Shown here: piece by piece, positions 12,988 through 55,861 of the stretch | How positions within the stretch are numbered: the first letter of the stretch is position 1 | Layout of the letters: every line of letters starts with the position of its first letter | Origin: a virus | Length of the DNA stretch: 64,000 bases | Reading direction: 5' to 3' (one strand) | IMG/VR virus record: IMGVR_UViG_3300046516_001541 | Span: 16,083 to 80,082 of that record | The notes under the pieces: model-generated | What the model was told of the DNA's origin: nothing | Database searches by the model: none | What the model saw: the letters and a program-made list of their open reading frames with translations, nothing else | Made by a program: the position numbers and the translations under genes

Positions 12988-13290
12988 ATGCAAATCGTTG
13001 ATCCGGTGACAGGGAAACCGAACCCACTCAAAGGTGTAGATGGGAGGCTGTCGACGACGCTGCCGCCGAATGCCTTCGCCATCACGCCAAGCGATGTCGC
13101 CATGTACGATCCGCCGATATCGGTCTGGGTGGGCGATGCCGGTACCGTGAATGTCGCGGTTGTGCCGTATGGGCTCAAAGGCGATAAGAGTGTGATTTTC
13201 CCGGCAACGCTGGGAATGACGTTGCCTGTATTGTGCAAGCAAGTACTTTCGACCGGCACGACCGCCGCCACACTCCGCGGCCAGTTCTAA
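12988..13290 (+). CDS. Head-spike base protein (RcGTA Rcc01079-like), copy 1
   Basis: AITPSD...VWVGDAGTV...G..LPV....VLSTGTTA pattern. Confidence 0.65.
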   Translation: MQIVDPVTGKPNPLKGVDGRLSTTLPPNAFAITPSDVAMYDPPISVWVGDAGTVNVAVVPYGLKGDKSVIFPATLGMTLPVLCKQVLSTGTTAATLRGQF

Positions 13291-13294
13291 GCTC

Positions 13295-13690
13295 GTGACG
13301 TTGCAGCTCCTCGACCCGGTCAAGGGCGACCCACATCCGCCAAAAGGCGTCGATGGGCGCCTATCAACTTGTCAGATGCCAGATGCAGGGCTGCTCACTC
13401 CCGACGATATGGTCGTCTACGACCCGCCGATTCGGTTGTGGATTGGTGACGCTGCCTCGTTGCTGGTGACTGTCGCTCCCTATGGCCGCGGCGGCGATGC
13501 GCTCGTGCAGTATCCGACGAAACTCGGAATGACGATTCCGGTTCTCGTTAAACAGGTTAAGGCAACCGGGACCACAGCCACAATTTTGATCGGCCAGACG
13601 GCGTTCAAGCCGATGGTACCGACCGGTCCGACCGCCGACTCAACGCTCATCACGGCGGACGACACAACAATTACCGCAGATAGTTTCTAG
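13295..13690 (+). CDS. Head-spike base protein, copy 2, with C-terminal TAD triple repeat
   Basis: Paralogue of 12988-13290 (DPV.G.P.P.KGVDGRLST, YDPPI..W.GDA, TGTTA); ends TADSTLITADDTTITADSF. Confidence 0.65.
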   Translation: MTLQLLDPVKGDPHPPKGVDGRLSTCQMPDAGLLTPDDMVVYDPPIRLWIGDAASLLVTVAPYGRGGDALVQYPTKLGMTIPVLVKQVKATGTTATILIGQTAFKPMVPTGPTADSTLITADDTTITADSF

Positions 13691-13700
13691 GGGTTTCCCA

Positions 13701-15572
13701 ATGCGCAAACTCTCCTTCCTGGCCAGCCTACTGCTGGTCGTGGCCGCCGCACAGGCAGCTCAGCAACCAGTTGCAACCGGGACCTCGGGCAATGACCATT
13801 CGGGCGATCCTTTGCGCACGGCGTTCACGAAGCTCAACGCGAACGATGCCGAGCTCTATGGAAAATTCCCGGTCAGCGTGGCCAACGGCGGCACGGGCGC
13901 GACGACGCTCACAGGGGTATTGAAAGGAAACGGCACCAGCGCGTTCACGGCGGCGACCGCGGCCAATCTCATCAGTCTATGGACGGGCAGCTGCTCCATC
14001 ACAGTTCCGCTGCGCGGCGATGGCTCCTGCGGCACGCTGCCGGCGGCCAGCATCACGGGGCTTGCGACCGTTGCAACGTCGGGAAATGCCACTGATCTGA
14101 GTGCTGGCACTTTGGCGGCGGCCCGGGGCGGCGCTGGCACGATCACGGGCGCGCTGAAAGGCAACGGGAGTGGTGTCGTCTCGCAGGCGGCGTGCGCCGA
14201 TCTCTCGAACGCTGCGGCCTCGTGTTCCATCGACGCGACGAATGCGACCAACATTGGATCCGGCACACTGCCGGCGGCCCAGCTCCCAGCGCTGACGGGG
14301 GACGTCACCACGACGGTTGGAACTGCGGCGACGACCGTCAAGCAGGTCCACAACAACGTCACCTCAATCAACAACGCTGTCTCACCCTACGCAGTTACGG
14401 CGACGGACTCGTTTATCTATTGCGATGCTACGGCGGGAGCCGTAGTGATCAATTTGCCGGCGGCAACCGGGACTGGTCGAGACATTTCTTTCAAGAAAAT
14501 CGATTCCACTGCGAACGCCTGCACACCAACACGGGCTGGATCGGACACTATTGATGGGGCAACCAGCTATTCGCTGACGGCTCAATATGCCGCATCGAAA
14601 ATTACTGATGCGGCTTCTGCAGTCTGGTATCGCACGCATACGAATCAGTTGGGCGGCGATGTCATTGGCACGAGTACGGCGAATACGGTCGCGAAGGTCA
14701 ATGGCAATACCCCGGGGGGTACTTGCACCAATCAGGCGGTCACATCGCTCAATTCGAGTGCAGTGCCGACGTGCACCACGCTGACTTCGGCCTACGTTGA
14801 TACTTCAATCGCGCAGACTGGCGCATCTAATAGCTTTACCGGTACCACACAGCAAATATCGAGCACCGAGCCGCGGTTGAAACTGAACCAGACGGGCGCG
14901 GGCACGGACCAGAAGCTATGGGACATCGACGTTGCTTCGGGCGTACTGACCATCCGTACACGGACAGACGCAGACGGGGCGGGTGTCAACGTCCTGACGG
15001 TGACACGAGGGACGGGCACGGCGGACTCCAATATCACGCTAGGTGACGCGACCGGTAACCCTACGTTTACCCTTGCGGGGACGAGTAACCTCAGTATCGG
15101 AGGCATCCTAAACACTACTGGTGTGAGTTCATCAGGCTCCATCGGTGCAGCTAGGTTTAACGTCACCGCTGCTACGGTCGCGACCAACGGAATATATCTG
15201 TCAGGCACCAACACGGTGGGCATCTCGACCAATACCACTGCGCGCGGCACCGTAGATGCCAACGGAGCGCTCAACTGGAACAAGGCCATCGTTGCGGCGG
15301 GCACCAAGCCTACAGTGACCGGCTGCTCAAATACCACAACCTTGGGCGGCGCTGTTGGTGGCTCATATCTCTCAGGTACAAGCGGGACTTGTACAGTGAC
15401 AATCACCCTGCCGACCGGGCCAACCAATGGGTACGCATGCTTCGCACACGATGACACCACGGCGGCGGATTACACCCAATCGGCGATTGTGACTGCCACC
15501 ACGACGCTGACTATCAGCGGAGCGACGGTCACTGGCGACAAGATCGTATGGGGCTGTCCTCTGGGATATTGA
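13701..15572 (+). CDS. Putative head fibre with N-terminal signal peptide
   Basis: Signal-like MRKLSFLASLLLVVAAAQA, then the fibre-anchor motif GNDHSGDPLRTAFTKLNANDAELY; GGTG repeats; Thr/Gly/Ala-rich; 12 Cys. Confidence 0.7.
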   Translation: MRKLSFLASLLLVVAAAQAAQQPVATGTSGNDHSGDPLRTAFTKLNANDAELYGKFPVSVANGGTGATTLTGVLKGNGTSAFTAATAANLISLWTGSCSITVPLRGDGSCGTLPAASITGLATVATSGNATDLSAGTLAAARGGAGTITGALKGNGSGVVSQAACADLSNAAASCSIDATNATNIGSGTLPAAQLPALTGDVTTTVGTAATTVKQVHNNVTSINNAVSPYAVTATDSFIYCDATAGAVVINLPAATGTGRDISFKKIDSTANACTPTRAGSDTIDGATSYSLTAQYAASKITDAASAVWYRTHTNQLGGDVIGTSTANTVAKVNGNTPGGTCTNQAVTSLNSSAVPTCTTLTSAYVDTSIAQTGASNSFTGTTQQISSTEPRLKLNQTGAGTDQKLWDIDVASGVLTIRTRTDADGAGVNVLTVTRGTGTADSNITLGDATGNPTFTLAGTSNLSIGGILNTTGVSSSGSIGAARFNVTAATVATNGIYLSGTNTVGISTNTTARGTVDANGALNWNKAIVAAGTKPTVTGCSNTTTLGGAVGGSYLSGTSGTCTVTITLPTGPTNGYACFAHDDTTAADYTQSAIVTATTTLTISGATVTGDKIVWGCPLGY

Positions 15573-15575
15573 CAA

Positions 15576-17111
15576 ATGTTGGATTCCTGGGCACGGCCCT
15601 ATTTAGATCCGCGCAAACTAGGCGCGGTCATGGACGGCGTGACGGATGACACGCGCGCGGCAAATACCTGTCTGGCATATATCGGCACGACGCCAGCGGA
15701 AATCATGATCGACACGCCAATGAAATTGGCGACGCCACCCATATGGCCAAGCAATGTATATCTGCGATTCGTTGGTCAGGGAATGTTTGTCTATGACAAT
15801 CCCTTGACGATAAATGGAACCTGGCACGCTGGGCCTCAACAGATTTTCATGCCGACGAACGCAGCGGCCACCTTGTCTGGGCGTCCTCGTATCCCGGAGA
15901 TATACACTGAATGGTTCGGGGCACCAGCCAACGGGATTGACGATGATTCGGTCGCCACGCTGTTGGCATTTAATGCATCGTCCATGATGGGTTATATCCC
16001 GGTAAAGCTACTTCCGATTACCTATCGATGGGCTCAACAGATCCTGGGCGGCGGCACTCCTGCGGTCAACTTCTTTGGAGTCTCACTTCACGGAACATTG
16101 GGTACTATTGTGAACTGCGCGGGACTCGGTCCAGGCGTATCAGCGATCAAGTATCGAGGAGGTTCCGGCCGGACATGGTGCAGGATTCGAGTCACTGACA
16201 TCGAGTTTGAAGGAGACGCCGATACTATCGCGGTCGAATTCTCAGGGCAGGATGGAGCGAAAGCATTCAACTGTCGATTTGGCGTTTCGGCAGAAGGCGT
16301 TAGGTTCAGCAACATAGATACCGGGGCATTCACTGAGTACTCCACAGCGGAAGGTTGTCAATTTGACGACAGTTGCGTATTGCATATGAACTATGTCCGG
16401 ACCAACGGGAATGACTCCTTCCACGGCTCCGGAATGGGACGGCGCTGCACCTCGAACCGTTCGGCTGGAAAGGTTGTGACCCACATCGGCCCTGGATGCA
16501 AAATCTACAACTCGCCAGTAGACGTCCAAGTGTGGGCAACAGGAGCAGTCACACTAATCCAGAACGACAGCACGTTACCCACATCTACCCACGGCCTTGT
16601 CACCTATGAAACATCGGATCCAAACGTGCTGACGCTGGGAGCAGGCAACGCAATTGACTTCGTGGGCGATGTCATGGGTACAGGCATAGCAACCGCGGGA
16701 ACCCTCACTCGAATGGATGCGGCGATCATCAACGCCGACAGCAGCGTGACCGCCATGGGTGCCCGTAAATCATACAAAGCCGCACTGACGACCGGCGCAA
16801 ACGTATTGCCTTCTTCCTTCGCCGGCAAGCATCGAGATATTGCCATTCAAATCGAAATGTCGAACTACGACTATCGATACACCCTGTCCGTAGATCCGAA
16901 CGGATACGGCGGCGCGGGGAAAGTCACGATTCTGTCCACTGATTTGAGTATCAACAACGCTGGCTATGGAGCCCCGGTTCTGTCAGTAGATGCCGCGGGA
17001 CATCTCGTACTCACTAACGCGAATTGGCCGGCGACCGGCCTCCAATGCGTCTACAGCGAACGAGAAAACTCAGGCGGAGCGTTCCAAGAGCAACACGAAC
17101 AGACGATATGA
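15576..17111 (+). CDS. Beta-helix (pectate-lyase-like) spike or depolymerase-like protein
   Basis: Two G-A-x-x-(D/N)-G-x-x-D-D motifs (LGAVMDGVTDDT, FGAPANGIDDDS) typical of the start of tailspike beta-helices. Confidence 0.65.
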   Translation: MLDSWARPYLDPRKLGAVMDGVTDDTRAANTCLAYIGTTPAEIMIDTPMKLATPPIWPSNVYLRFVGQGMFVYDNPLTINGTWHAGPQQIFMPTNAAATLSGRPRIPEIYTEWFGAPANGIDDDSVATLLAFNASSMMGYIPVKLLPITYRWAQQILGGGTPAVNFFGVSLHGTLGTIVNCAGLGPGVSAIKYRGGSGRTWCRIRVTDIEFEGDADTIAVEFSGQDGAKAFNCRFGVSAEGVRFSNIDTGAFTEYSTAEGCQFDDSCVLHMNYVRTNGNDSFHGSGMGRRCTSNRSAGKVVTHIGPGCKIYNSPVDVQVWATGAVTLIQNDSTLPTSTHGLVTYETSDPNVLTLGAGNAIDFVGDVMGTGIATAGTLTRMDAAIINADSSVTAMGARKSYKAALTTGANVLPSSFAGKHRDIAIQIEMSNYDYRYTLSVDPNGYGGAGKVTILSTDLSINNAGYGAPVLSVDAAGHLVLTNANWPATGLQCVYSERENSGGAFQEQHEQTI

Positions 17112-18303: not shown

Positions 18304-19143
18304 ATGCCGCTGCTCGAAGGTTCCAGCGACGAAGTTATCAGCCACAACATCAAAGAGATGATGGATGCGGGACACCCGCAGGATCAGGCGATCGCCGCCG
18401 CATACCGAAAAGCAGGTCGTTCGAAGAAGGATCATGGGACTATGAAAAAATGCACTTTGTTCGTGAAATCGATGCTGGAAGCTCGCATCGAGGAACCTAG
18501 CGTCGCGGTCGCCATCGCGCGCGCCGAACTGGAAAAGGCGAATGAGGAAAGCAACAACGCGATCATGTTTGCCAACTCCGGCGTCAATGTGGCTGGCCAA
18601 AACAATAGCCAGGGACGCACAGACCGAAAACCTACGGCGGCAGAAAAGGCAGCCGGCGACTACGATAAGCGCAAAGTCGCCTGGCAGGGACTGACGATTG
18701 CCATCGAGAACGAAGCGGGCAGTACGCGCAGCGGCACCAATCGCGACGGCGAAACGTGGTCGCAGAAAATGCCGTATGCCTATGGTGAGATTCAGCAGAC
18801 CGAGGGCACGGATGGCGATCCGGTCGACTGTTTCCTGGGACCTGACGAAGATGCGCAATTCGCCTACGTGGTGCATGCGCGCAAGGTCAATCGCTGGGAT
18901 GAATTCGACGAAGACAAAGTCATGTTGAATTTCCCGACCGAAGAGTCGGCGGCGGCAGCGTTCCTCGAATGCTACAGCGACCCGCGCTTTCTGGGCCCGA
19001 TCACGGCGATGCCGGTCATCGAGTTTGTGCAGAAGGTTTCGAACACGAATGGTCGACCGACGATGATCAAGGCCATCGTTGCTAATAGCGCTGGGTTATT
19101 GGATGGCTTGCCACCCGTCTTTTTTTTTGCAAAGCGCACGTGA
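18304..19143 (+). CDS. Phage polyvalent-type inorganic-pyrophosphatase-like protein with a small N-terminal phage domain
   Basis: [13 protein letters not shown]...W...[23 protein letters not shown]...FDEDKVML; N-terminal MPL.EGSS..VISHNI.E...AGHPQ.QAIAAAY. Confidence 0.8.
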
Positions 19144-19481
19144 AGGGCTACACCCGGAAAAACGGAACTTACGTTCCGCCACATAACGACAATCGGAATG
19201 CCGCTATATCGACTAGTTCTGTCGAAAACATCGGGCGCTCTTTGATGCAGGCTGGCCATGATACGGCTGCACGCAAAAAACATATTGCCGATTTGTTATC
19301 CCATCATCCTGATGGATATAAAACCGGGAAATGGGTTAAAGAGACTATCGCTGGCGATATATTTTGGACTAACGGAAAGAAATATATAACTAGCGGCCAA
19401 CTGTTAGAAGAAGTTGGCACTGCACTTGTCGGTTCTGGCGCGATAAGTCATTCAGCTTACTATGGCGAGAGCATCGAATGA
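19140..19481 (+). CDS. Hypothetical protein starting with a [12 protein letters not shown] motif; possibly a frameshift extension of 18304-19143
   Basis: ORF track; visibly more AT-rich than its neighbours. Confidence 0.6.
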
Positions 19482-22400
19482 GCGAAAAAGCCGTTCTATT
19501 CGCGATGCCGACCCACGTCAAAGGGTCGGTCGACAAGCATGGGCACGTCCGCGCTGGCCACATGTCCACGCGGCACAAGAAGATCGAGACGGCTCCCCCA
19601 GCGGAGCGCGTCGAGTCGACGCTGGATAAATTCATCGTCTCGCACGGCGGCGCGGAGCATTTGCGCAAGACTCTGGACGAGATGACGGCGGAACAGCGCG
19701 CGAAACTCATCGATGCGATGGCCTACGTCGGCGGCATCGAACATTCGGCAGTGCTCGACAAGCTCAGTATGCGCAAACCCGCAGCCGAGGACCGCCAAAA
19801 GCTCGTCGATCGCCTGGGCCGCGGCGTGGCCGGCGGTTTCATCGACGAGCAGGACAGCGGCGTCGTGCTCGAGACGTATGACAAGGAGGGTTCCCAGGTT
19901 GCGCTCAATACGCTGCGCGGCATTCTCAAACAGAAGAAGGAAGCCGCGACCCAAGCGCTCCCCGCCGAACCCGTTACCGCAACAGTGGCCGCGGCGGAAG
20001 CGCCTGGGACATCAGAGGACGATCAGACCGCAGATGAAACAGTCGCACCAGCATCAATTCCAGTATTGAATCGCCTGAGAGACGATCCGGATTTGCGCGG
20101 CGGACTCGCGGGCATGAAGAATGAGACCGGCTGGGCCCAAGTCGGCGGCAAACTCATGCGCGATGCGGCGACGGATGCCGTCACGGGACGCACGATGTGG
20201 ATCCCCAATGCCGAATGGTGGCCGGGGCGACCGAAGGGGCTCAAAGAGCACGAGGTGCACGCGGCGGTTGATAAGGCGCTTGCGGGGCAGAAGCTCAAAA
20301 AGCGCGAACTGGCCATGGTCACTTTCATGGCGCAGGTCCACGACGAGCGCCTGGCGATGGAGGCCACGCATGCCGAACTGAAGGAAGCCGTCTCGGATCT
20401 GGCCGAGCAACCGGCGCAGGCAGTTGACATAACAATTCTGACCAGTCGCGCGGGCGACCACGATCCGGATGCAACTGCGGCAGTGCTGGATTCCTGGGAC
20501 GATGACAAACCGGAAACCATTACTCGTATTCGAGGCGAACTTGAGAGGATAATCGGGAATGGACAAAAAACCCTCAACGTTGAAGCCGACAGTGGTGGAA
20601 AACCTGCGAAAGTTGAACCTACATCGCCGGGTGCGCTCGACCTCTTCGGCCAAGACACGACCGCCGAACAAGCGCTAGCCGACGAGACTCGGCGCCGCGA
20701 CGAAGCGCGATCGCCGAATAAGGACGTTCCGCTCGAGACGGGCGATCCCGGTGATTTGTTCAGTCAGGCGCGTCGTCAGGTAGACATTGGCGACGCCGCT
20801 GCCGGTCCACAGGAAGGCGCAACCAAAACCGAGAACGGGATCGATTACGTGTTGCGTGATGGCCGCTGGCATCGCGTGGCCGGCGCCGCAGATGAAGCCG
20901 AACCGCCGCCGCCAGAACCATCCGCGCAGGCGGCAGTCCTGACGCCATCCGATGGCGACGATCTGGATCCTAACAGTCCAAACTATCGATATCGGGACAC
21001 CGGCTATGTCGGCGGCAGCCGCAAGGAACTGGCATCTCAGATGATTCGGCGCGCGGCCCGCACGGGGCAGCATGTCAGCGCGACTGATATCGACTGGGAT
21101 GAAATCGAAAAGAATCCGCGCGAGGCAGCCGAACTCATCACGAAGAAGAACATTTTCGGCGATATCGATTGGACCGCGATGAGCCAAACCGAGATGGCGC
21201 CAGGGGCAGGCTTCATACTGCAGAAGGTTTACGCCAGCGTTGCGCCGGATCCGAAGGAAGATACCGCACTCGGCCGGCGCGATTATGCGGTGGGGATCGA
21301 CTCCCTGCGCAAGCGCCTCGAGGCGTGCAAGTCGGTCGACGAGGTCGCGAAGACGCTTGACGAAATTCAGGATGAGCGCGACGGCATCATTCTGACATCA
21401 GAGGAAGAGGCAACGTATCTTGCCTATCGAGCCGCAGCCAAGGAGGAACAGGAGAAGGTTCGCGCGGTCGATGCGGCAGCGGATGCGCTTTATCAGACAT
21501 ATATGACCGCACAGACATCAGCTTCGAGGTTGAAGTTTGACGTCGAGAAGCGTGTCATTCGGAAATGGAAGGTCTCGCCGGAAATGCAACAGCAGGCTGA
21601 CGATGCCAAGGCTGAGGCAGCGGCGAAGATGGATACTTGGCGCAAGTATCGAGATGAGCAGGGAATGCAGGCGATCACGCATCAAACAAAAGAAAACGGG
21701 AGCATTTCATCTCGCTTTGAGTATCCCTACAAAAACAAACTGCATGATCTGCACGCGCGAATTGGCGCTCTACGCACGGCGACACAGGAACGCAACCGCG
21801 TAGAGAATCCGCTGACGCGAGCATGGAATGCGCTGGGCGACTCATTTAATGCGGTCGTCGACTATCGCCGGCACAAAGGATCCGAGGCGTTCGCGCGGCA
21901 TCTGGCCACGGCGAAGGCTGGTCGCGTCAAAGATTGGGCGTGGGCGGAAAAGAAAGCAGGGGGCGAGCCGCGCAAGGCCTCCAAGCGCTCTACCTCATTC
22001 CAACTTCGAGTTGCGGATAACTTCGAGCGTGAGGGTGGCCGAGCCGTCGCGGTAGATTCGACGTCGTCCCTGAAAGAGCATTTCGGGCTACGCGAGGTGC
22101 AGTCCGGCAACTGGGTACTCGATGATCCAAACTCGGCAAAATTTCATGTTGAGCATTGCGCGAATGCGTTCGCTGACATGGCGGATATCCTGGGCATCCC
22201 AGATCAACAGGCGTCATTCAATGGACGTCTGGCGATGGCGTTCGGGGCCCGGGGCCGAGGGAAGGCAGGCGGTACAGTGGCTGCGGCCCATTACGAACCC
22301 GTTGAGCGCGTCATCAATCTCACGAAGATGGCCGGCGGCGGCAGCCTGGCGCATGAGTGGTTTCACTTCGTCGACAACATCGTCAAGGAGGCGACGACCG

Positions 22401-23101
22401 GTGTCGGCTCCAGCGTCGATGATTTTGCGACCGAGAATGCGGGCACGCTCGATGATCCGGATTTGAAAGCAGCTTTCGTCGGGCTGACTACGGCAATGAT
22501 GGAGGGCCCACACCGCCGAACAGTCACGATGCAGTACACCGAGACTGAAGAGAAAATGGCCCATCAGAATATGCAGGGTCACTACGCAGGCAGCATTCGA
22601 GACAAAATCCGCAGCGCTACTGGCGTGCAGAATGCGATTGATCAGGTGCAGGCCATGTACGCGCGCGGTGCATTCGGCAGCGTAGACAAGAAGAAGTCAC
22701 AGAACACCCGCGATACGTGGAAGAAAATCGCCGCTATCCACCATGCCGGCAATGCCCAACGGGAAATCCGGTACGAGGTCGGCGCGGGGGTATCCATGTT
22801 TGCGCTCGAAGCTGTGCAACTCGACCAAGGCGCCTCGGGCAAATACTGGTCACAGCCCAAGGAGATGGCCGCGCGCGCGTTCAGCAGCTTCATGCAGGAC
22901 AAACTCGAAGGGGCCCAGCGTCGGAATACCTATCTGGTTTCCATGGCGGATAACCAAGTCTATAAAGCCATGGGCGAACCTCATCGGCCTTTCCCGGAAG
23001 GAGAGGAACGCAGCAGGGTCAATGCCGCTTTCGAGAGGCTGTTCACAGTTTTGCGTGAGCGGGACGTTCTCGCCAAAGCGCTTGAGCTGCTCGCCGCCTA
23101 G
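19478..23101 (+). CDS. Large polyvalent protein: zincin-like metallopeptidase plus LPD1-type C-terminal domain; probable internal head/ejection protein
   Basis: LAMAFGARG..AAAHYEP..VINLTK..GGGSLAHEWFH (HExxH); YWSQPKEMAARAF...PFPEGEERSRVNAAF. Confidence 0.8.
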   Translation: MSEKAVLFAMPTHVKGSVDKHGHVRAGHMSTRHKKIETAPPAERVESTLDKFIVSHGGAEHLRKTLDEMTAEQRAKLIDAMAYVGGIEHSAVLDKLSMRKPAAEDRQKLVDRLGRGVAGGFIDEQDSGVVLETYDKEGSQVALNTLRGILKQKKEAATQALPAEPVTATVAAAEAPGTSEDDQTADETVAPASIPVLNRLRDDPDLRGGLAGMKNETGWAQVGGKLMRDAATDAVTGRTMWIPNAEWWPGRPKGLKEHEVHAAVDKALAGQKLKKRELAMVTFMAQVHDERLAMEATHAELKEAVSDLAEQPAQAVDITILTSRAGDHDPDATAAVLDSWDDDKPETITRIRGELERIIGNGQKTLNVEADSGGKPAKVEPTSPGALDLFGQDTTAEQALADETRRRDEARSPNKDVPLETGDPGDLFSQARRQVDIGDAAAGPQEGATKTENGIDYVLRDGRWHRVAGAADEAEPPPPEPSAQAAVLTPSDGDDLDPNSPNYRYRDTGYVGGSRKELASQMIRRAARTGQHVSATDIDWDEIEKNPREAAELITKKNIFGDIDWTAMSQTEMAPGAGFILQKVYASVAPDPKEDTALGRRDYAVGIDSLRKRLEACKSVDEVAKTLDEIQDERDGIILTSEEEATYLAYRAAAKEEQEKVRAVDAAADALYQTYMTAQTSASRLKFDVEKRVIRKWKVSPEMQQQADDAKAEAAAKMDTWRKYRDEQGMQAITHQTKENGSISSRFEYPYKNKLHDLHARIGALRTATQERNRVENPLTRAWNALGDSFNAVVDYRRHKGSEAFARHLATAKAGRVKDWAWAEKKAGGEPRKASKRSTSFQLRVADNFEREGGRAVAVDSTSSLKEHFGLREVQSGNWVLDDPNSAKFHVEHCANAFADMADILGIPDQQASFNGRLAMAFGARGRGKAGGTVAAAHYEPVERVINLTKMAGGGSLAHEWFHFVDNIVKEATTGVGSSVDDFATENAGTLDDPDLKAAFVGLTTAMMEGPHRRTVTMQYTETEEKMAHQNMQGHYAGSIRDKIRSATGVQNAIDQVQAMYARGAFGSVDKKKSQNTRDTWKKIAAIHHAGNAQREIRYEVGAGVSMFALEAVQLDQGASGKYWSQPKEMAARAFSSFMQDKLEGAQRRNTYLVSMADNQVYKAMGEPHRPFPEGEERSRVNAAFERLFTVLRERDVLAKALELLAA

Positions 23102-24855: not shown

Positions 24856-26331
24856 ATGTTCAATCCGACAATTTTCCCCCAACTTGCCAATGGCGCTTCC
24901 GCCACAGGGGCACTGGGGCTCGATCAGGTGGCCGAGCTGCAGAAGGCGTTGACCGTAGGCTACGGCACGGACGTCTCGACGCTGTCCGGCGGCGCGGCTT
25001 TCCGGATCCAGTCGCTGGATCGGACCATGATGGCCACGATTCAGGAGAACAAGCACTTTCGCCTGTTCAACGAGCTCGCCAAGCAGCCGGCGACCGCGAC
25101 CGTCGACGAATGGACGGAGCAGTCGAGTGTCGGCGGATTCCTGGGCGGTTCGACCAACTCGGAAACCGGCACCATCGCTGCGGCGCAGGGTGTCTACAAT
25201 CGGCGCGTCGGTCTGGTCAAGTACCTGATGACTCGCCGCGAGGTATCGTTCGTTTCCACGCTGGGCAACAACATTGTTCAGTCCGAGGCGATCGAGCAGC
25301 AGGCCGGCGCCAAGCAGCTGATTTCGGATGCGGAATTCCTGTCATTTTTCGGTGATTCGGCCGTGGTTCCGACCGAATTCGACGGCATCTTTGCCCAGCT
25401 TCAGGCGGGCGTGACGGCCGGTCAGGTGGATCCGCAGAACATCATCGACGCGGCGGGCGGCACGCTCTCCTCGATCAACTTCGTCAATCAGGCGGCGGCC
25501 CAGGTGAGTGGATACGGCAACTTTGGCCAGCCCACTCATATCTTCACGTCGCAGCTCGTGCAGGCAGACTTCGATACCGGCCTGGATCCGGCGTTCCGTG
25601 TGCCTCTGACGGACGTGCCAGGCGGCGGCATTCAGCTGGGTTCGCCGGTCAAGGGTATCCGCACTTCCTGGGGCGACATCCGGACCGAGCCGGACGTGTT
25701 CATTCAGGATGAGAAAAACCTCCGTCCGTTCGAAGCGGACTTCCCGACGATCGCCGCGGCGAATGCTGCGCTGGCACCGACACTGGCGGTCGATGCGTCC
25801 GTGACGGATGCATCCTCAAATTTCCTGGCCGCGACGGCAGGGAACTACTATTGGGGCGTGACCGGCCTCAATGCGGCGGGCCAGTCGACCATCGTAAAGA
25901 CGGCACAGACCGCAGTAGCGGCGGGCAAGAAGGTGACTCTCACCATCACACGCTCGGGTGGCGCGCAGGAAACGGGCTACGCGATCTATCGCTCGCGCCT
26001 CAATGGCACGAATGGCACGACCGATTTCCGGCTCATCAAGCGGATTCCGCTGGTCGGCGCGACGACTCCCTATGTCGATTTCAACGTCGATCTCCCGGGC
26101 ACGACCAAGGCATTCATCCTGAATCTGATGCCTGGCGATTCGGCGATCACATGGCGGCAACTGTTGCCCATGCTGAAATTCCCGCTGTACCCGACCGTTG
26201 CTGCGACCATTCCGTGGGCGCAGTTGATGTTCGGTTATCTGCGGCTCAGCAAGCGCAAGCACCACGCGATCATCAAAAACATCGTTCCGACGAATTCCGT
26301 CTGGAAGCCATATGGTCTGATCGCGACCTGA
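24856..26331 (+). CDS. Major capsid protein
   Basis: 491 aa; LQKALTVGYGTD..LSGGAAFRIQSLD, FFGDSAVVPTEFDGI, IIDAAG resemble SPO1/A511/K-type capsids; GAGG SD. Confidence 0.9.
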   Translation: MFNPTIFPQLANGASATGALGLDQVAELQKALTVGYGTDVSTLSGGAAFRIQSLDRTMMATIQENKHFRLFNELAKQPATATVDEWTEQSSVGGFLGGSTNSETGTIAAAQGVYNRRVGLVKYLMTRREVSFVSTLGNNIVQSEAIEQQAGAKQLISDAEFLSFFGDSAVVPTEFDGIFAQLQAGVTAGQVDPQNIIDAAGGTLSSINFVNQAAAQVSGYGNFGQPTHIFTSQLVQADFDTGLDPAFRVPLTDVPGGGIQLGSPVKGIRTSWGDIRTEPDVFIQDEKNLRPFEADFPTIAAANAALAPTLAVDASVTDASSNFLAATAGNYYWGVTGLNAAGQSTIVKTAQTAVAAGKKVTLTITRSGGAQETGYAIYRSRLNGTNGTTDFRLIKRIPLVGATTPYVDFNVDLPGTTKAFILNLMPGDSAITWRQLLPMLKFPLYPTVAATIPWAQLMFGYLRLSKRKHHAIIKNIVPTNSVWKPYGLIAT

Positions 26332-46962: not shown

Positions 46963-47465
46963 TGCCGGCGATCGAATTGCGGCTGATCATATATGCCGTC
47001 CTATCACTGGGGCTGCTCGGGGGCGCCGGTTGGACTGGGTACAAAATCACGTCGATGCATTATGAGACTGTGATGGGCAAAGATCAGACTGCCCGGGACA
47101 CAGCGGTTCAGACGGCGGAATTGAATGTGATCGCCCTACAAAAAGAGCGTGACACTCTCAAGCAACAGGTGGAGAAAGATCATGCGCTCATGGTGCAGAC
47201 CGACGCTACTGCTCGCGACGCTATCCTTGGCAGCGTGCGTGGGCTCGAAGACGCGCTACATCTCGGCGCCATGTCCAGACCAATGGATCATTCCGGAAAA
47301 CCTGGCGGAGCCGGCGCAGGGACCAGCAGCAATAGCGAGATTTCAAATCTCATTGGACAACTTAACGACAGCTTTAAAGAAGCTCTCGCCGGTTGTCAGC
47401 ACGATAGCACCGAGCTCACCGGGATCCTCGCAATAGCGCCGAAAGCGCCAATTTCGATCAATTAG
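46959..47465 (+). CDS. Inner-membrane spanin (Rz-like)
   Basis: Single N-terminal TM helix then coiled coil; follows the endolysin. Confidence 0.75.
   Translation: MMPAIELRLIIYAVLSLGLLGGAGWTGYKITSMHYETVMGKDQTARDTAVQTAELNVIALQKERDTLKQQVEKDHALMVQTDATARDAILGSVRGLEDALHLGAMSRPMDHSGKPGGAGAGTSSNSEISNLIGQLNDSFKEALAGCQHDSTELTGILAIAPKAPISIN
47182..47436 (+). CDS. Outer-membrane lipoprotein spanin (Rz1-like), embedded in the +1 frame
   Basis: GGAG SD; MRSWCRPTLLLATLSLAAC lipobox; Pro-rich mature part. Confidence 0.8.
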   Translation: MRSWCRPTLLLATLSLAACVGSKTRYISAPCPDQWIIPENLAEPAQGPAAIARFQISLDNLTTALKKLSPVVSTIAPSSPGSSQ

Positions 47466-53934: not shown

Positions 53935-54164
53935 GCACCAGATTCATGAAATTCAAAGTGCGGATTAAGGCGATCATTGATCAACAGCAACTCGTTTCGC
54001 TGGTTCGATCAGCGCCTATTACTGCGACAGCGATCCCAATTGCCGAATTTCATTGCGGACCTTTTCAATGCGACACAATCGAGGATGTCTGGGCGATCGT
54101 AACTGAAACGGTAGCGCAGGAACGCCAGTCCGCGTACGAGAAATTGAAGGATTTCGCTCCATGA
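53931..54164 (+). CDS. Small hypothetical protein
   Basis: Coupled between the ATPase and trigger factor genes. Confidence 0.5.
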   Translation: MSTRFMKFKVRIKAIIDQQQLVSLVRSAPITATAIPIAEFHCGPFQCDTIEDVWAIVTETVAQERQSAYEKLKDFAP

Positions 54165-55861
54165 CTAACGAACTGCGCCGCACGATCGACATCGAGTTAC
54201 CTGACTCTCAGATCGAGAGGGCTCTAAATCAAAAATTCCCTTTTCGGCATGGAAAACTGCCTGCATTCTCCTATCTCCGCAAGAAATATGGCGATGACTT
54301 TCTGACTGAAATCCTTCAGGCATTGTTGACAGAGAGGATCAACACGGAAATCGCCGCTCTCAAAATGGACATCGCCAGTGGCATAGAAGTTATGTCGCTG
54401 TGGAATACGTGGGATCAGCCATTGCGGTATCGGTATCGCGTGCAGTTCGAGGTATTTCCCGAATTCACGCTGCAGGGCCTGGATGCCTTGACGATGCCGG
54501 CTATTGCGCCTGTTCGGATCGACGATGCCCAGGTCGATGCATTCATCGAGATTATGCGACGCGAGCGATCGCCATGGCGGCATGTGAACCGCTGCGCTCT
54601 CCCGGGCGACCGCGTCGTAATCAATTTCAATGGGACCATTGATGGCGAGACGTTTCCTGGCGGCCGAGGTCAGGCGGCGAAAATCGAATTAGGCGCGGGT
54701 GGCATGTTGCCGGCATTTGAGCATGCATTGATGGCTGCGATGCCAGATGAGGATTTGTCTTTTCCGATTACTTTCCCCGCAGATTATCAAACATCTTTTT
54801 TGGCCGGGAAGACGGCGCAATTCGAGGTGCATATTGTTGACATTCAGGCGATTGATCTGTTGCCGCTCGACGATGAGTTTGCTAAGCGCTTCGGCGTTAC
54901 AGAGGGCATTGCGGCAATGCGCGAAGGAATGCGCAAAAATCTTGAGCGACAGCATCAGGAGCAGGATCAGCGCGATATCAGCAATTCATTGCTCACTCAG
55001 CTGGCGGCGGCGAACCCTATCCCGTTGCCAGACTCGTTAGTCGATCAACACATCCGGGCTATTCAGGCTGAGATGGCGCCGCGCGCCGGTCATCCGACAG
55101 AGCAAATCTATATTGACGCGGGCATGATCGCGACGGCCCGCCATCGAACCCATCTGGGAATTTTAGTACGCGAACTGATCAAGACTGAACACATCGAGGT
55201 TGATGCCAGTCAAATCGATGTGCGCATGGAAAGCATGGCGGCGGCAGCAACGGGCGCTCCTGCCGAGCTCATCCGGCATAATCCCGCGATAATTCAGCAG
55301 GTCCGTGCTGAGTTATTGCAAGAGCGCGTCATTAACTGGTTGATTTTCCGCGCCAAGCAGAATACTGACACGGTCGCGTCACGATCATCCATTAGAAAGG
55401 ATCGCACCATGCACAATCCATTTCATCGGCATCATCATTCTCATTCCCACGAACCGCCTTTTGCCGCTATTATCACCGACGCTTTCCTGCACGTCCGGTA
55501 TCACCGGCATACACACCATGGAGCACACACAGTGAGCACAGTTACACTCAAAGGCACGACTCCGATCGCGCGCACTGACGGCAGCGCGCTGGCTCTGACC
55601 GACATCGCTTCCATCGACGTTTTCGACGATGTTGGCGATGGCAATGGCCCACAGAACATTGGCAGCGTTCCCAACCCTGGCGCGACATTCGAATTCACGA
55701 CCGGCGTTCTGACCGCCGGCGTGACGCACAACTTCACAGTCGTGGTCAATGACACGACCGGTCACAAGTCCGCCCCGTCCAATGCGATTCCGATTCCGGT
55801 TCCCGCGACCCTTGCGGCGCCGAATGCTGTGGCCGATCTCGTCGGCACGCTGAATGCCTGA
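54161..55861 (+). CDS. tig: Divergent trigger factor homologue, in frame with a His-rich linker and an FN3-like domain
   Basis: FRHGKLP (GFRxGKxP signature), FEVFPE, FKBP domain GDRV.INF.G.IDGE.F.GG...TFP.DY...LAGK.A.F.V, LDDEFAK; no stop before the FN3-like part. Confidence 0.88.
   Translation: MTNELRRTIDIELPDSQIERALNQKFPFRHGKLPAFSYLRKKYGDDFLTEILQALLTERINTEIAALKMDIASGIEVMSLWNTWDQPLRYRYRVQFEVFPEFTLQGLDALTMPAIAPVRIDDAQVDAFIEIMRRERSPWRHVNRCALPGDRVVINFNGTIDGETFPGGRGQAAKIELGAGGMLPAFEHALMAAMPDEDLSFPITFPADYQTSFLAGKTAQFEVHIVDIQAIDLLPLDDEFAKRFGVTEGIAAMREGMRKNLERQHQEQDQRDISNSLLTQLAAANPIPLPDSLVDQHIRAIQAEMAPRAGHPTEQIYIDAGMIATARHRTHLGILVRELIKTEHIEVDASQIDVRMESMAAAATGAPAELIRHNPAIIQQVRAELLQERVINWLIFRAKQNTDTVASRSSIRKDRTMHNPFHRHHHSHSHEPPFAAIITDAFLHVRYHRHTHHGAHTVSTVTLKGTTPIARTDGSALALTDIASIDVFDDVGDGNGPQNIGSVPNPGATFEFTTGVLTAGVTHNFTVVVNDTTGHKSAPSNAIPIPVPATLAAPNAVADLVGTLNA

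Follow-up and report, generated by a model that had tools for sequence, protein, structure and literature searches.

What is a secretion leader doing on a virion fibre, when tailed phages, by the textbook account, are assembled wholly in the reducing cytoplasm? The question is raised by a 64,000-nucleotide stretch of DNA (here called the window; positions 16,083 to 80,082 of the 80-kb IMG/VR viral contig IMGVR_UViG_3300046516_001541), in which an open reading frame (ORF) at 13701-15572 (+ strand) encodes a 623-residue fibre, fibre 1, with a Sec-type leader and six pairs of neighbouring cysteines. A second leader-bearing fibre (fibre 2) is encoded in the tail module. From comparison with homologues, we conclude that the periplasm of the host is very probably where both fibres fold, in a compartment separate from the cytoplasm in which particle assembly takes place.

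The fibre 1 ORF starts with ATG, preceded by GGGG 9 to 12 nt upstream, and its product begins MRKLSFLASLLLVVAAAQA/AQQPV (the slash marks the predicted cut). The n-region is M-R-K, the h-region LSFLASLLLVVAAA is uncharged, and the c-region A-Q-A places small residues at -3 and -1. All marks of a Sec leader for signal peptidase I (positive n-region, uncharged h-region of 7 to 15 residues, small residues at -3 and -1) are therefore present, as the preliminary description of this DNA had seen when it spoke of a textbook signal peptide with an AxA site. The N-terminus has neither a lipobox cysteine at +1 nor a twin arginine (S/T-R-R-x-F-L-K), which rules out a lipoprotein or Tat signal from the sequence. 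A true start further downstream, named in the preliminary description as a way in which the leader could prove illusory, found no support: the sole in-frame candidate, a GTG at V14, falls inside the h-region, and since the leader remains coding sequence even in diverged homologues, we rejected it. Leaders were called with a stricter rule of our own, a heuristic rather than a trained signal-peptide predictor, and 105 of 119 fibre 1 homologues passed it. The leader is retained among homologues, although its sequence varies; the close relative L011, for example, has MRKTFFAVPLLAACLLAHG ahead of a near-identical anchor. Leaders that vary freely beside a conserved anchor follow the pattern of signal-peptide evolution. 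A loose hydrophobicity screen of the large virion-module ORFs flagged only fibre 1 and fibre 2.

The cut would fall exactly where related proteins begin. The sequence directly after it, AQQPVATGTSGNDHSGDPLRTAFTKLNANDAELY, opens an anchor motif (QQPVxxGTxxNDxxGDxLRTAFxKLNANDxELY). Three cultured phages have leaderless proteins in which this motif begins at residue 2: Bradyrhizobium phage ppBeUSDA76-1 (MAQQVVNVG..., E 3e-7), Rhizobium phage RHph_I46 (annotated "baseplate structural protein"), and Synechococcus phage S-CAM22, a cyanophage (annotated "gp9-like connector"). The preliminary description had pointed to such homologues, and these three bear it out. Of the motif carriers in metagenomes and genomes, 20 have a leader whose end lies directly ahead of (A)QQ, and 15 begin M-A/S/T-Q/K-Q. 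Because the junction matches these leaderless N-termini, cleavage would recreate the N-terminus of the leaderless relatives. Only after the predicted cleavage does the anchor stand at a free N-terminus, as in gp9/gp10-type connectors. It is also the most conserved segment of the protein (23 carriers; invariant residues Q21, Q22, G27, N31, G35, D36, A41, K44, N46, A47, N48, and Y53). A first scan of genome contigs for anchor carriers gave no match; an alignment-based scan found mostly leaderless carriers in Proteobacteria and leader-bearing ones in metagenome-assembled genomes (MAGs) of Bacteroidota and Verrucomicrobiota. In one provirus (L012, 11404-12396), a 330-residue leader-bearing protein with four cysteines comes after a fibre that has the same anchor but neither leader nor cysteine, an arrangement that may be a split version of the design.

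The cysteines follow the leader. Fibre 1 contains 12 of them (residues 98, 110, 165, 175, 241, 274, 342, 358, 542, 564, 580, and 619) in six neighbouring pairs, whereas the major capsid protein (MCP) has none and the ordinary tail fibre one; these counts, made in the preliminary description, were reproduced, and neighbours also proved to covary. In an alignment of 39 homologues, C241 and C274 were both present in 18 sequences, singly in 2, and both absent in 17, and the corresponding counts for C98 and C110 were 10, 3, and 17. For mis-paired control cysteines, mostly just one of the two was present. Three cysteines near the C-terminus (C542, C564, and C580) were at least 90% conserved in 20 C-terminal homologues. 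Across the 105 leader-bearing homologues, the mature part has a median of 10 cysteines, never none, and an even number in 91 (binomial P = 5e-15, computed over sequences that are related to one another). The mature part alone was used as the query for an independent set; a search of the whole library gave 6652 clusters at an E value of ≤1e-3, and of the 92 new top hits taken, 71 had a leader, 55 of these with an even cysteine count. Among anchor carriers, cysteine density was about eightfold higher with a leader than without (1.21 versus 0.16 per 100 residues; P = 8.5e-6 [by a Mann-Whitney test]). An even count, pairwise gain and loss, and enrichment over cytoplasmic relatives, the marks of a disulfide-bonded protein, were all found. 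Since the leader goes with paired cysteines, Sec export followed by disulfide formation in the periplasm is the favoured explanation.

To what would such a fibre belong? Pfam and PHROGs hold no family for either fibre, and a PDB sequence search matched neither. A tblastn search of cultured phages gave only short domain matches for fibre 1 and none for fibre 2; no cultured relative carries fibre 1. For the region of residues 220 to 315, these matches were a minor tail protein of Gordonia phage Petra and a Thermocrinis virus region annotated as T7 tail fiber protein/hypothetical protein. The monomer model is confident only in this region (predicted local distance difference test [pLDDT] score of >90); the low score of the shaft may reflect the trimeric state expected of it. 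Foldseek matched the region (E 7e-5 to 1e-3, prob 1.0) to XD/gp10-like domains: the N-terminal part of CBA120 TSP4 (7rej, E 1.6e-4), the tailspike of Acinetobacter phage Solidus (24qj, 6.8e-5), the baseplate of Klebsiella phage KP1 (9f4b, 9.6e-5), the Pa223 capsid spike (9ny6), and T4 gp10 and gp9. The best PDB match of the C-terminal half, the Bdellovibrio fibre Bd2133 (8ond), was weak (E 1e-3, prob 0.99, TM 0.24, root mean square deviation 17 Å).

The genes around fibre 1 place it on the capsid. Between the portal gene and fibre 1 lie two tandem paralogues, small1 and small2, both homologous to a spike-base protein and both conserved in L011 (small2 with 50% identity). RcGTA Rcc01079 itself gave no detectable match to either. 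The 30-residue C-terminal extension of small2 (…TADSTLITADDTTITADSF) could contact the fibre. The tailspike-like gene beginning 3 nt past fibre 1 has tblastn matches to tail spikes of Klebsiella phages, and judging from their sequences these four genes look like a head-spike module. Given the spike-base homologues just upstream, the gp9-like N-terminus, and the gp10/XD-like domain, fibre 1, encoded in the late head operon, is most likely an accessory head-spike fibre of the capsid, a more precise identity than the virion fibre of the preliminary description, which homology supports. In Dolphis and several other relatives, the portal gene is followed directly by the gp6-like gene, and we therefore regard the cassette as an insertion. 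Only one of 66 capsid relatives, the L011/L015 contig, shares it in the same gene order. In L006, the fibre 1 C-terminus (240 residues, 70% identity) sits behind a different leader and anchor and is followed by a 58% identical copy of the tailspike-like gene, as is typical of mosaic exchange of receptor binders. The tailspike-like protein has no N-terminal anchor domain and moves together with the fibre 1 C-terminus.

Fibre 2, which the preliminary description had taken to be of the same design, indeed combines a leader (MATNLKTLLASLVFSLIATSALA/QQ) with six cysteines. Its gene lies between the baseplate genes and the ordinary tail fibre. All members of a 10-homologue alignment have the leader, and both cysteines of the first pair, in CSASTFLRGDGAC, are invariant. 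An upstream ATG at 43615, whose use would add SRRRQM, lacks a Shine-Dalgarno sequence, and no RR occurs in the homologues. Just ahead of fibre 2 is the gene for a leaderless 142-residue protein, a member of a conserved stand-alone family of about that length. Its KISTLPAA-type anchor opens leaderless tailspikes at the same position in relatives and follows leaders in other phages. Its C-terminal module is common to proteins of ~240 residues with a different N-terminus and, by eye, seems to resemble residues 238 to 310 of fibre 1. Homologues occur on contigs of 34,939 and 93,539 bp, and the contigs that encode the leader-bearing fibres P0013 and P0018 have these same lengths. The 142-residue protein may be an adaptor for fibre 2. 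The N-terminal type of the ordinary fibre, the canonical one of the lineage, recurs in fibres of 29 relatives, in which leaders in the fibre 2 region occur only on putative lytic enzymes and one 263-residue protein. In four loci (L086, L089, L098, and L114), leader-bearing ORFs with a common motif (…AHQYLPIL…WPDAPxPSFLAAQ) stand downstream of the baseplate genes; these are presumed to be secreted lytic enzymes, and the endolysin of the phage studied here is leaderless.

The contig, rated 87% complete, encodes portal, protease, MCP, sheath, tube, tape measure, and baseplate proteins and thus derives from an uncultured, contractile-tailed myovirus with a genome of about 90 kb. Its MCP is ~49% identical to those of Bordetella phage PHB04, Pseudomonas phage Dolphis, and Aeromonas phage ST4, whose genomes are 90 to 95 kb each. 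The lysis genes bear on the fate of an exported fibre. An o-spanin with the lipobox LAAC is encoded in another frame within the gene of an i-spanin that has an N-terminal transmembrane segment; this embedded spanin indicates a host with two membranes. As the endolysin is leaderless, its release depends on a holin; no holin gene was identified.

These observations suggest a route for the fibre. The 19-residue leader would send the fibre 1 chain through SecYEG, and signal peptidase I would cut AQA/AQQ, leaving the N-terminus that leaderless relatives have after removal of Met. Host Dsb enzymes would close six sequential disulfides, and the fibre would trimerise in the periplasm, while the leaderless spike bases would already sit on cytoplasmic capsids. 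Base and fibre would meet, docking by the anchor, once the holin has opened the inner membrane or else at lysis; the holin hole may mix cytoplasm and periplasm inside an intact outer membrane before the spanins act, a timing that we infer. Fibre 2 would work likewise at the baseplate, perhaps through the 142-residue protein. The preliminary description had proposed that such fibres are exported, are oxidised, and meet the particle only at lysis. Its parts differ in strength: cleavage, Sec export, and disulfide oxidation, taken jointly, are highly likely by comparison, whereas attachment to the particle once the inner membrane has been breached is possible but somewhat doubtful. Late attachment is plausible because the fibre is of a decoration type (a capsid decoration can bind a finished particle), because lysis depends on a holin, and because three proteins of Cellulophaga phage phi18:3 (NC_021794; gp085, gp086, and gp087) have leader-like N-termini and are annotated as virion/tail proteins from tandem mass spectrometry (MS/MS). 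Attachment to the particle as such is favoured by a virion anchor that is exactly retained and strongly conserved, by a docking domain, by dedicated base genes, by the late-operon coupling, and by the phi18:3 precedent; granted export, we put it at just under an even chance. Only tentatively do we extend this to tailed phages at large, as assembly in two compartments in which Sec-exported, disulfide-stapled host-recognition fibres would dock on adaptors already placed on a cytoplasmic capsid or tail (in our phage the spike bases and perhaps the 142-residue protein) once the holin opens the inner membrane, a scheme that may recur across thousands of environmental phage proteins.

Several findings weigh against this reading. 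All of its support is comparative and the leader calls are heuristic, and we know of no mechanism by which exported proteins join tailed-phage particles. A few Cys-rich homologues (P0025 and P0031) have no leader; conversely, leader-bearing anchor carriers in two Bacteroidota MAGs (Chryseolinea, 1123 residues; Cyclobacteriaceae, 357 residues) have one cysteine each. No Dsb or thioredoxin was found encoded on the contig. The tailspike-like partner next to fibre 1 is leaderless yet has nine cysteines, and the two would have to meet if fibre 1 is exported. Both fibres are accessory: the cassette is missing from more than 60 capsid relatives, and the tail fibres of the 29 relatives are all leaderless and Cys-poor. 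The phi18:3 proteins have just 0 to 3 cysteines, and their MS/MS assignment is a database annotation that does not imply cleavage and is compatible with co-purification.

Might the fibre, then, never leave the cytoplasm? Its hydrophobic N-terminus could be a plug that docks into the spike base, or the protein could stay inside with its cysteines oxidised after release or bound to metal. Base homologues do precede fibre 1, and the RcGTA head fibre offers a precedent in a hydrophobic N-terminal peptide (residues 2 to 10, IALGLGLGL) that plugs the base pentamer (PMC7296036). The fibre 1 leader, however, contains no (I/L-G)n repeat, has a positive n-region and an AxA-type site for which a plug has no need, and differs strongly from that of L011 although the bases are ~50% identical and the anchors near-identical. 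A leader of this kind is also present on fibre 2, in the tail module, and neither BLAST nor a profile of four base copies found a base homologue in the flanks (up to 10 kb) of 10 other leader-fibre loci. Retention in the cytoplasm would agree with the Cys-rich homologues that lack a leader and with the trigger factor encoded by the phage, as trigger factor can slow export in Escherichia coli; the strong link between leader and cysteines and the absence of trigger factor from other phages with leader-bearing fibres speak against it. We consider an unexported fibre quite improbable. The preliminary description had also suggested that trigger factor could be part of the fibre pathway, together with a survey of leader-bearing fibres for co-occurrence with tig. 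The phage homologue is full length, with all three domains, and was not found in 30 related phages or on 8 other contigs with leader-bearing fibres or close fibre 1 relatives, 4 of them complete. A scan of viral contigs found no relative of it; matches in phage databases were ~25 to 28% identical and mostly on short fragments. It does not travel with leader-bearing fibres, and we dropped it as an export partner.

Export and disulfide bonding could equally serve a fibre that is not a particle component and is instead free or bound to the envelope. Such a fibre could save progeny by masking or digesting the receptors of the lysing cell and of its debris, could exclude superinfecting phages, or could serve as a soluble decoy; Llp of phage T5, which is exported and blocks a receptor, protects progeny in this way. 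The leader, the cysteine pairing, and the parity apply here just as well, and leader-bearing fibres are accessory in the lineage. Exported trimeric fibres that act at a surface also exist, in the mosaic adhesive trimeric (MAT) fibres of Bdellovibrio, of which Bd2133 was produced as a construct starting at residue 21 behind a PelB leader (PMC10769870). Yet fibre 1 keeps a virion-type anchor, its most conserved segment, at the exact mature N-terminus, and it retains the XD docking domain. Spike-base genes, whose only role to our knowledge is to hold a fibre, lie directly upstream in a conserved gene order, and a phage that releases its own receptor binder in free form would have to compete with it. 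Nor does fibre 1 resemble the receptor-blocking lipoproteins (T5 Llp, Cor), having no lipobox and, at 623 residues, not being small. On balance we think a free fibre rather unlikely. Far less probable still is a moron expressed in lysogeny, a surface adhesin by which a temperate phage benefits its host. Signal-peptide morons such as lambda lom and bor do lie in the tail regions of temperate phages, and some relatives of our phage are flagged as proviruses. Against this, no integrase or resolvase was found in the 80-kb contig, 87% complete, and PHB04 and Dolphis, the cultured relatives nearest by MCP, are presumably virulent. The fibre 1 gene is translationally coupled in the late operon, with gaps of 3 to 10 nt around it, and no promoter or terminator signal above that of shuffled sequences flanks the leader-fibre genes. 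Export with attachment to the particle is the reading that we favour, and Table 1 gives the positions of the features on which it draws.

Table 1. Positions in the window of the two leader-bearing fibres, their parts, and other genes discussed in the text
Feature	Position	Strand	Remarks
Spike-base homologue small1, 100 aa, no leader	12988-13290	+	PDB 8cjz_h "Spike Base Protein," E 4.5e-6; phrog_12296
Spike-base homologue small2, 131 aa, no leader	13295-13690	+	PDB 8cjz_h, E 1.1e-3; paralogue of small1
Fibre 1, predicted Sec-type (signal peptidase I) leader, 19 aa (MRKLSFLASLLLVVAAAQA)	13701-13757	+	n/h/c anatomy; leaders in 105/119 homologues
Fibre 1, gp9-like N-terminal anchor motif (AQQPVATGTSGNDHSGDPLRTAFTKLNANDAELYGK), predicted mature N-terminus	13758-13865	+	Starts at residue 2 in leaderless relatives
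Fibre 1, Gly/Thr-rich shaft, Cys pairs C98-C110 (CSITVPLRGDGSC) and C165-C175	13866-14357	+	Pair co-occurrence in the 39-homologue alignment
Fibre 1, XD/T4 gp10-like beta domain, residues 220-315, Cys pair C241-C274	14358-14645	+	pLDDT >90; Foldseek
Fibre 1, distal shaft (C342-C358) and C-terminal beta-rich tip (C542-C564, C580-C619), stop codon included	14646-15572	+	Model mean pLDDT 75
Tailspike-like beta-helix protein, 511 aa, 9 Cys, no leader	15576-17111	+	phrog_11548 pectate lyase, E 1.7e-4
MCP	24856-26331
142-aa leaderless protein, KISTLPAA-type anchor and C-terminal module	43229-43657	+	Conserved stand-alone family, ~142 aa
Fibre 2, leader-bearing, 6 Cys	43642-45411	+	Leader 43642-43710; 10-homologue alignment
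Ordinary leaderless tail fibre, 228 aa, 1 Cys	45436-46122	+	Pfam Gp53-like_C; phrog_4209
Lysis genes	46498-47465	+	Leaderless Peptidase_M15_3 endolysin 46498-46962; i-spanin 46926-47465; embedded o-spanin 47149-47436
Trigger-factor homologue	54161-55861	+	Domain matches: Trigger_N, FKBP_C, Trigger_C

Three further observations concern the virion modules. In the head module, between the gp6-like gene and the protease gene (18304-23101, + strand), a 279-residue InPase-domain protein and a 1207-residue LPD1-domain protein are encoded; both resemble pieces of polyvalent proteins. A baseplate protein (41750-43222, + strand) has a PASTA domain at residues 87 to 149, and PASTA domains are usually described as binding peptidoglycan. 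Seven loci of relatives (L016, L020, L022, L032, L043, L052, and L057) have an extra 4 to 10 kb between the MCP gene and the next conserved virion gene, a segment that the phage studied here lacks and that may be a hot spot for cargo; in L020, it includes two leader-bearing ORFs.

We found no paper describing secretion leaders on phage tail or head fibres. In Porphyromonas phages, genes for capsid, spanin, and unknown proteins carry host-adapted Sec signals (PMC10367356, Matrishin et al. 2023); the term "tail fiber" is absent from the text of that paper. What this window adds is the residue-exact junction of leader and anchor, the head-spike context with leaderless bases, the leader-bearing fibres as accessory additions in a myovirus, and the negative result for trigger factor. 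Together, the exact junction and the spike-base context supply a well-defined pair on which the model can be tested, the base being a cytoplasmic product and the fibre a periplasmic one. Were export and oxidation of fibres routine, particle assembly would end outside the cytoplasm, Sec and Dsb would count among the host factors for phage infectivity, and such receptor-binding proteins would have to be expressed in the periplasm when they are produced in a heterologous host.

Among known systems, the RcGTA head spike is close in layout. There, a pentamer of the base protein (Rcc01079) at each capsid vertex holds one head fibre (Rcc01080) by its N-terminus, and the spikes, a glycan-binding capsid decoration, help the particle to bind the capsule but are dispensable for gene transfer (PMC7296036, PMC10218006). 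As in RcGTA, small jellyroll-type base genes directly precede the fibre gene (base homologues as in Table 1), and docking is N-terminal. Unlike the RcGTA fibre, which has an (I/L-G)n plug and no secretion signal, fibre 1 combines a Sec-type leader with a gp9-like anchor, an XD domain, and six cysteine pairs, and the five-fold (I/L-x) N-terminal plug is absent from it. With the T4 connectors gp9 and gp10 and the XD domains of CBA120 TSP4, fibre 1 shares the XD/gp10 fold and an N-terminal motif found in cyanophage "gp9-like" connectors; those connectors and branched-tailspike XD proteins, however, have no leader, are put together in the cytoplasm, and are not disulfide-based structures. The ppBeUSDA76-1 protein WAX24361 (291 residues) has an anchor 56% identical to that of fibre 1 from residue 2 onward but no leader and no cysteine, and it is encoded in the tail-tip region of a siphovirus. 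Phage phi18:3 is a cultured podovirus of Bacteroidota whose record is silent on leaders, and the likeness of its proteins to our fibres is one of design. The MAT fibres of Bdellovibrio bacteriovorus (Bd2133; PMC10769870) are exported, mosaic, trimeric adhesins, as fibre 1 would be, and the structural match to them is the weak one given above; they are encoded by chromosomal genes of the predator and displayed on its own surface, whereas fibre 1 is encoded in the late head operon of a phage.

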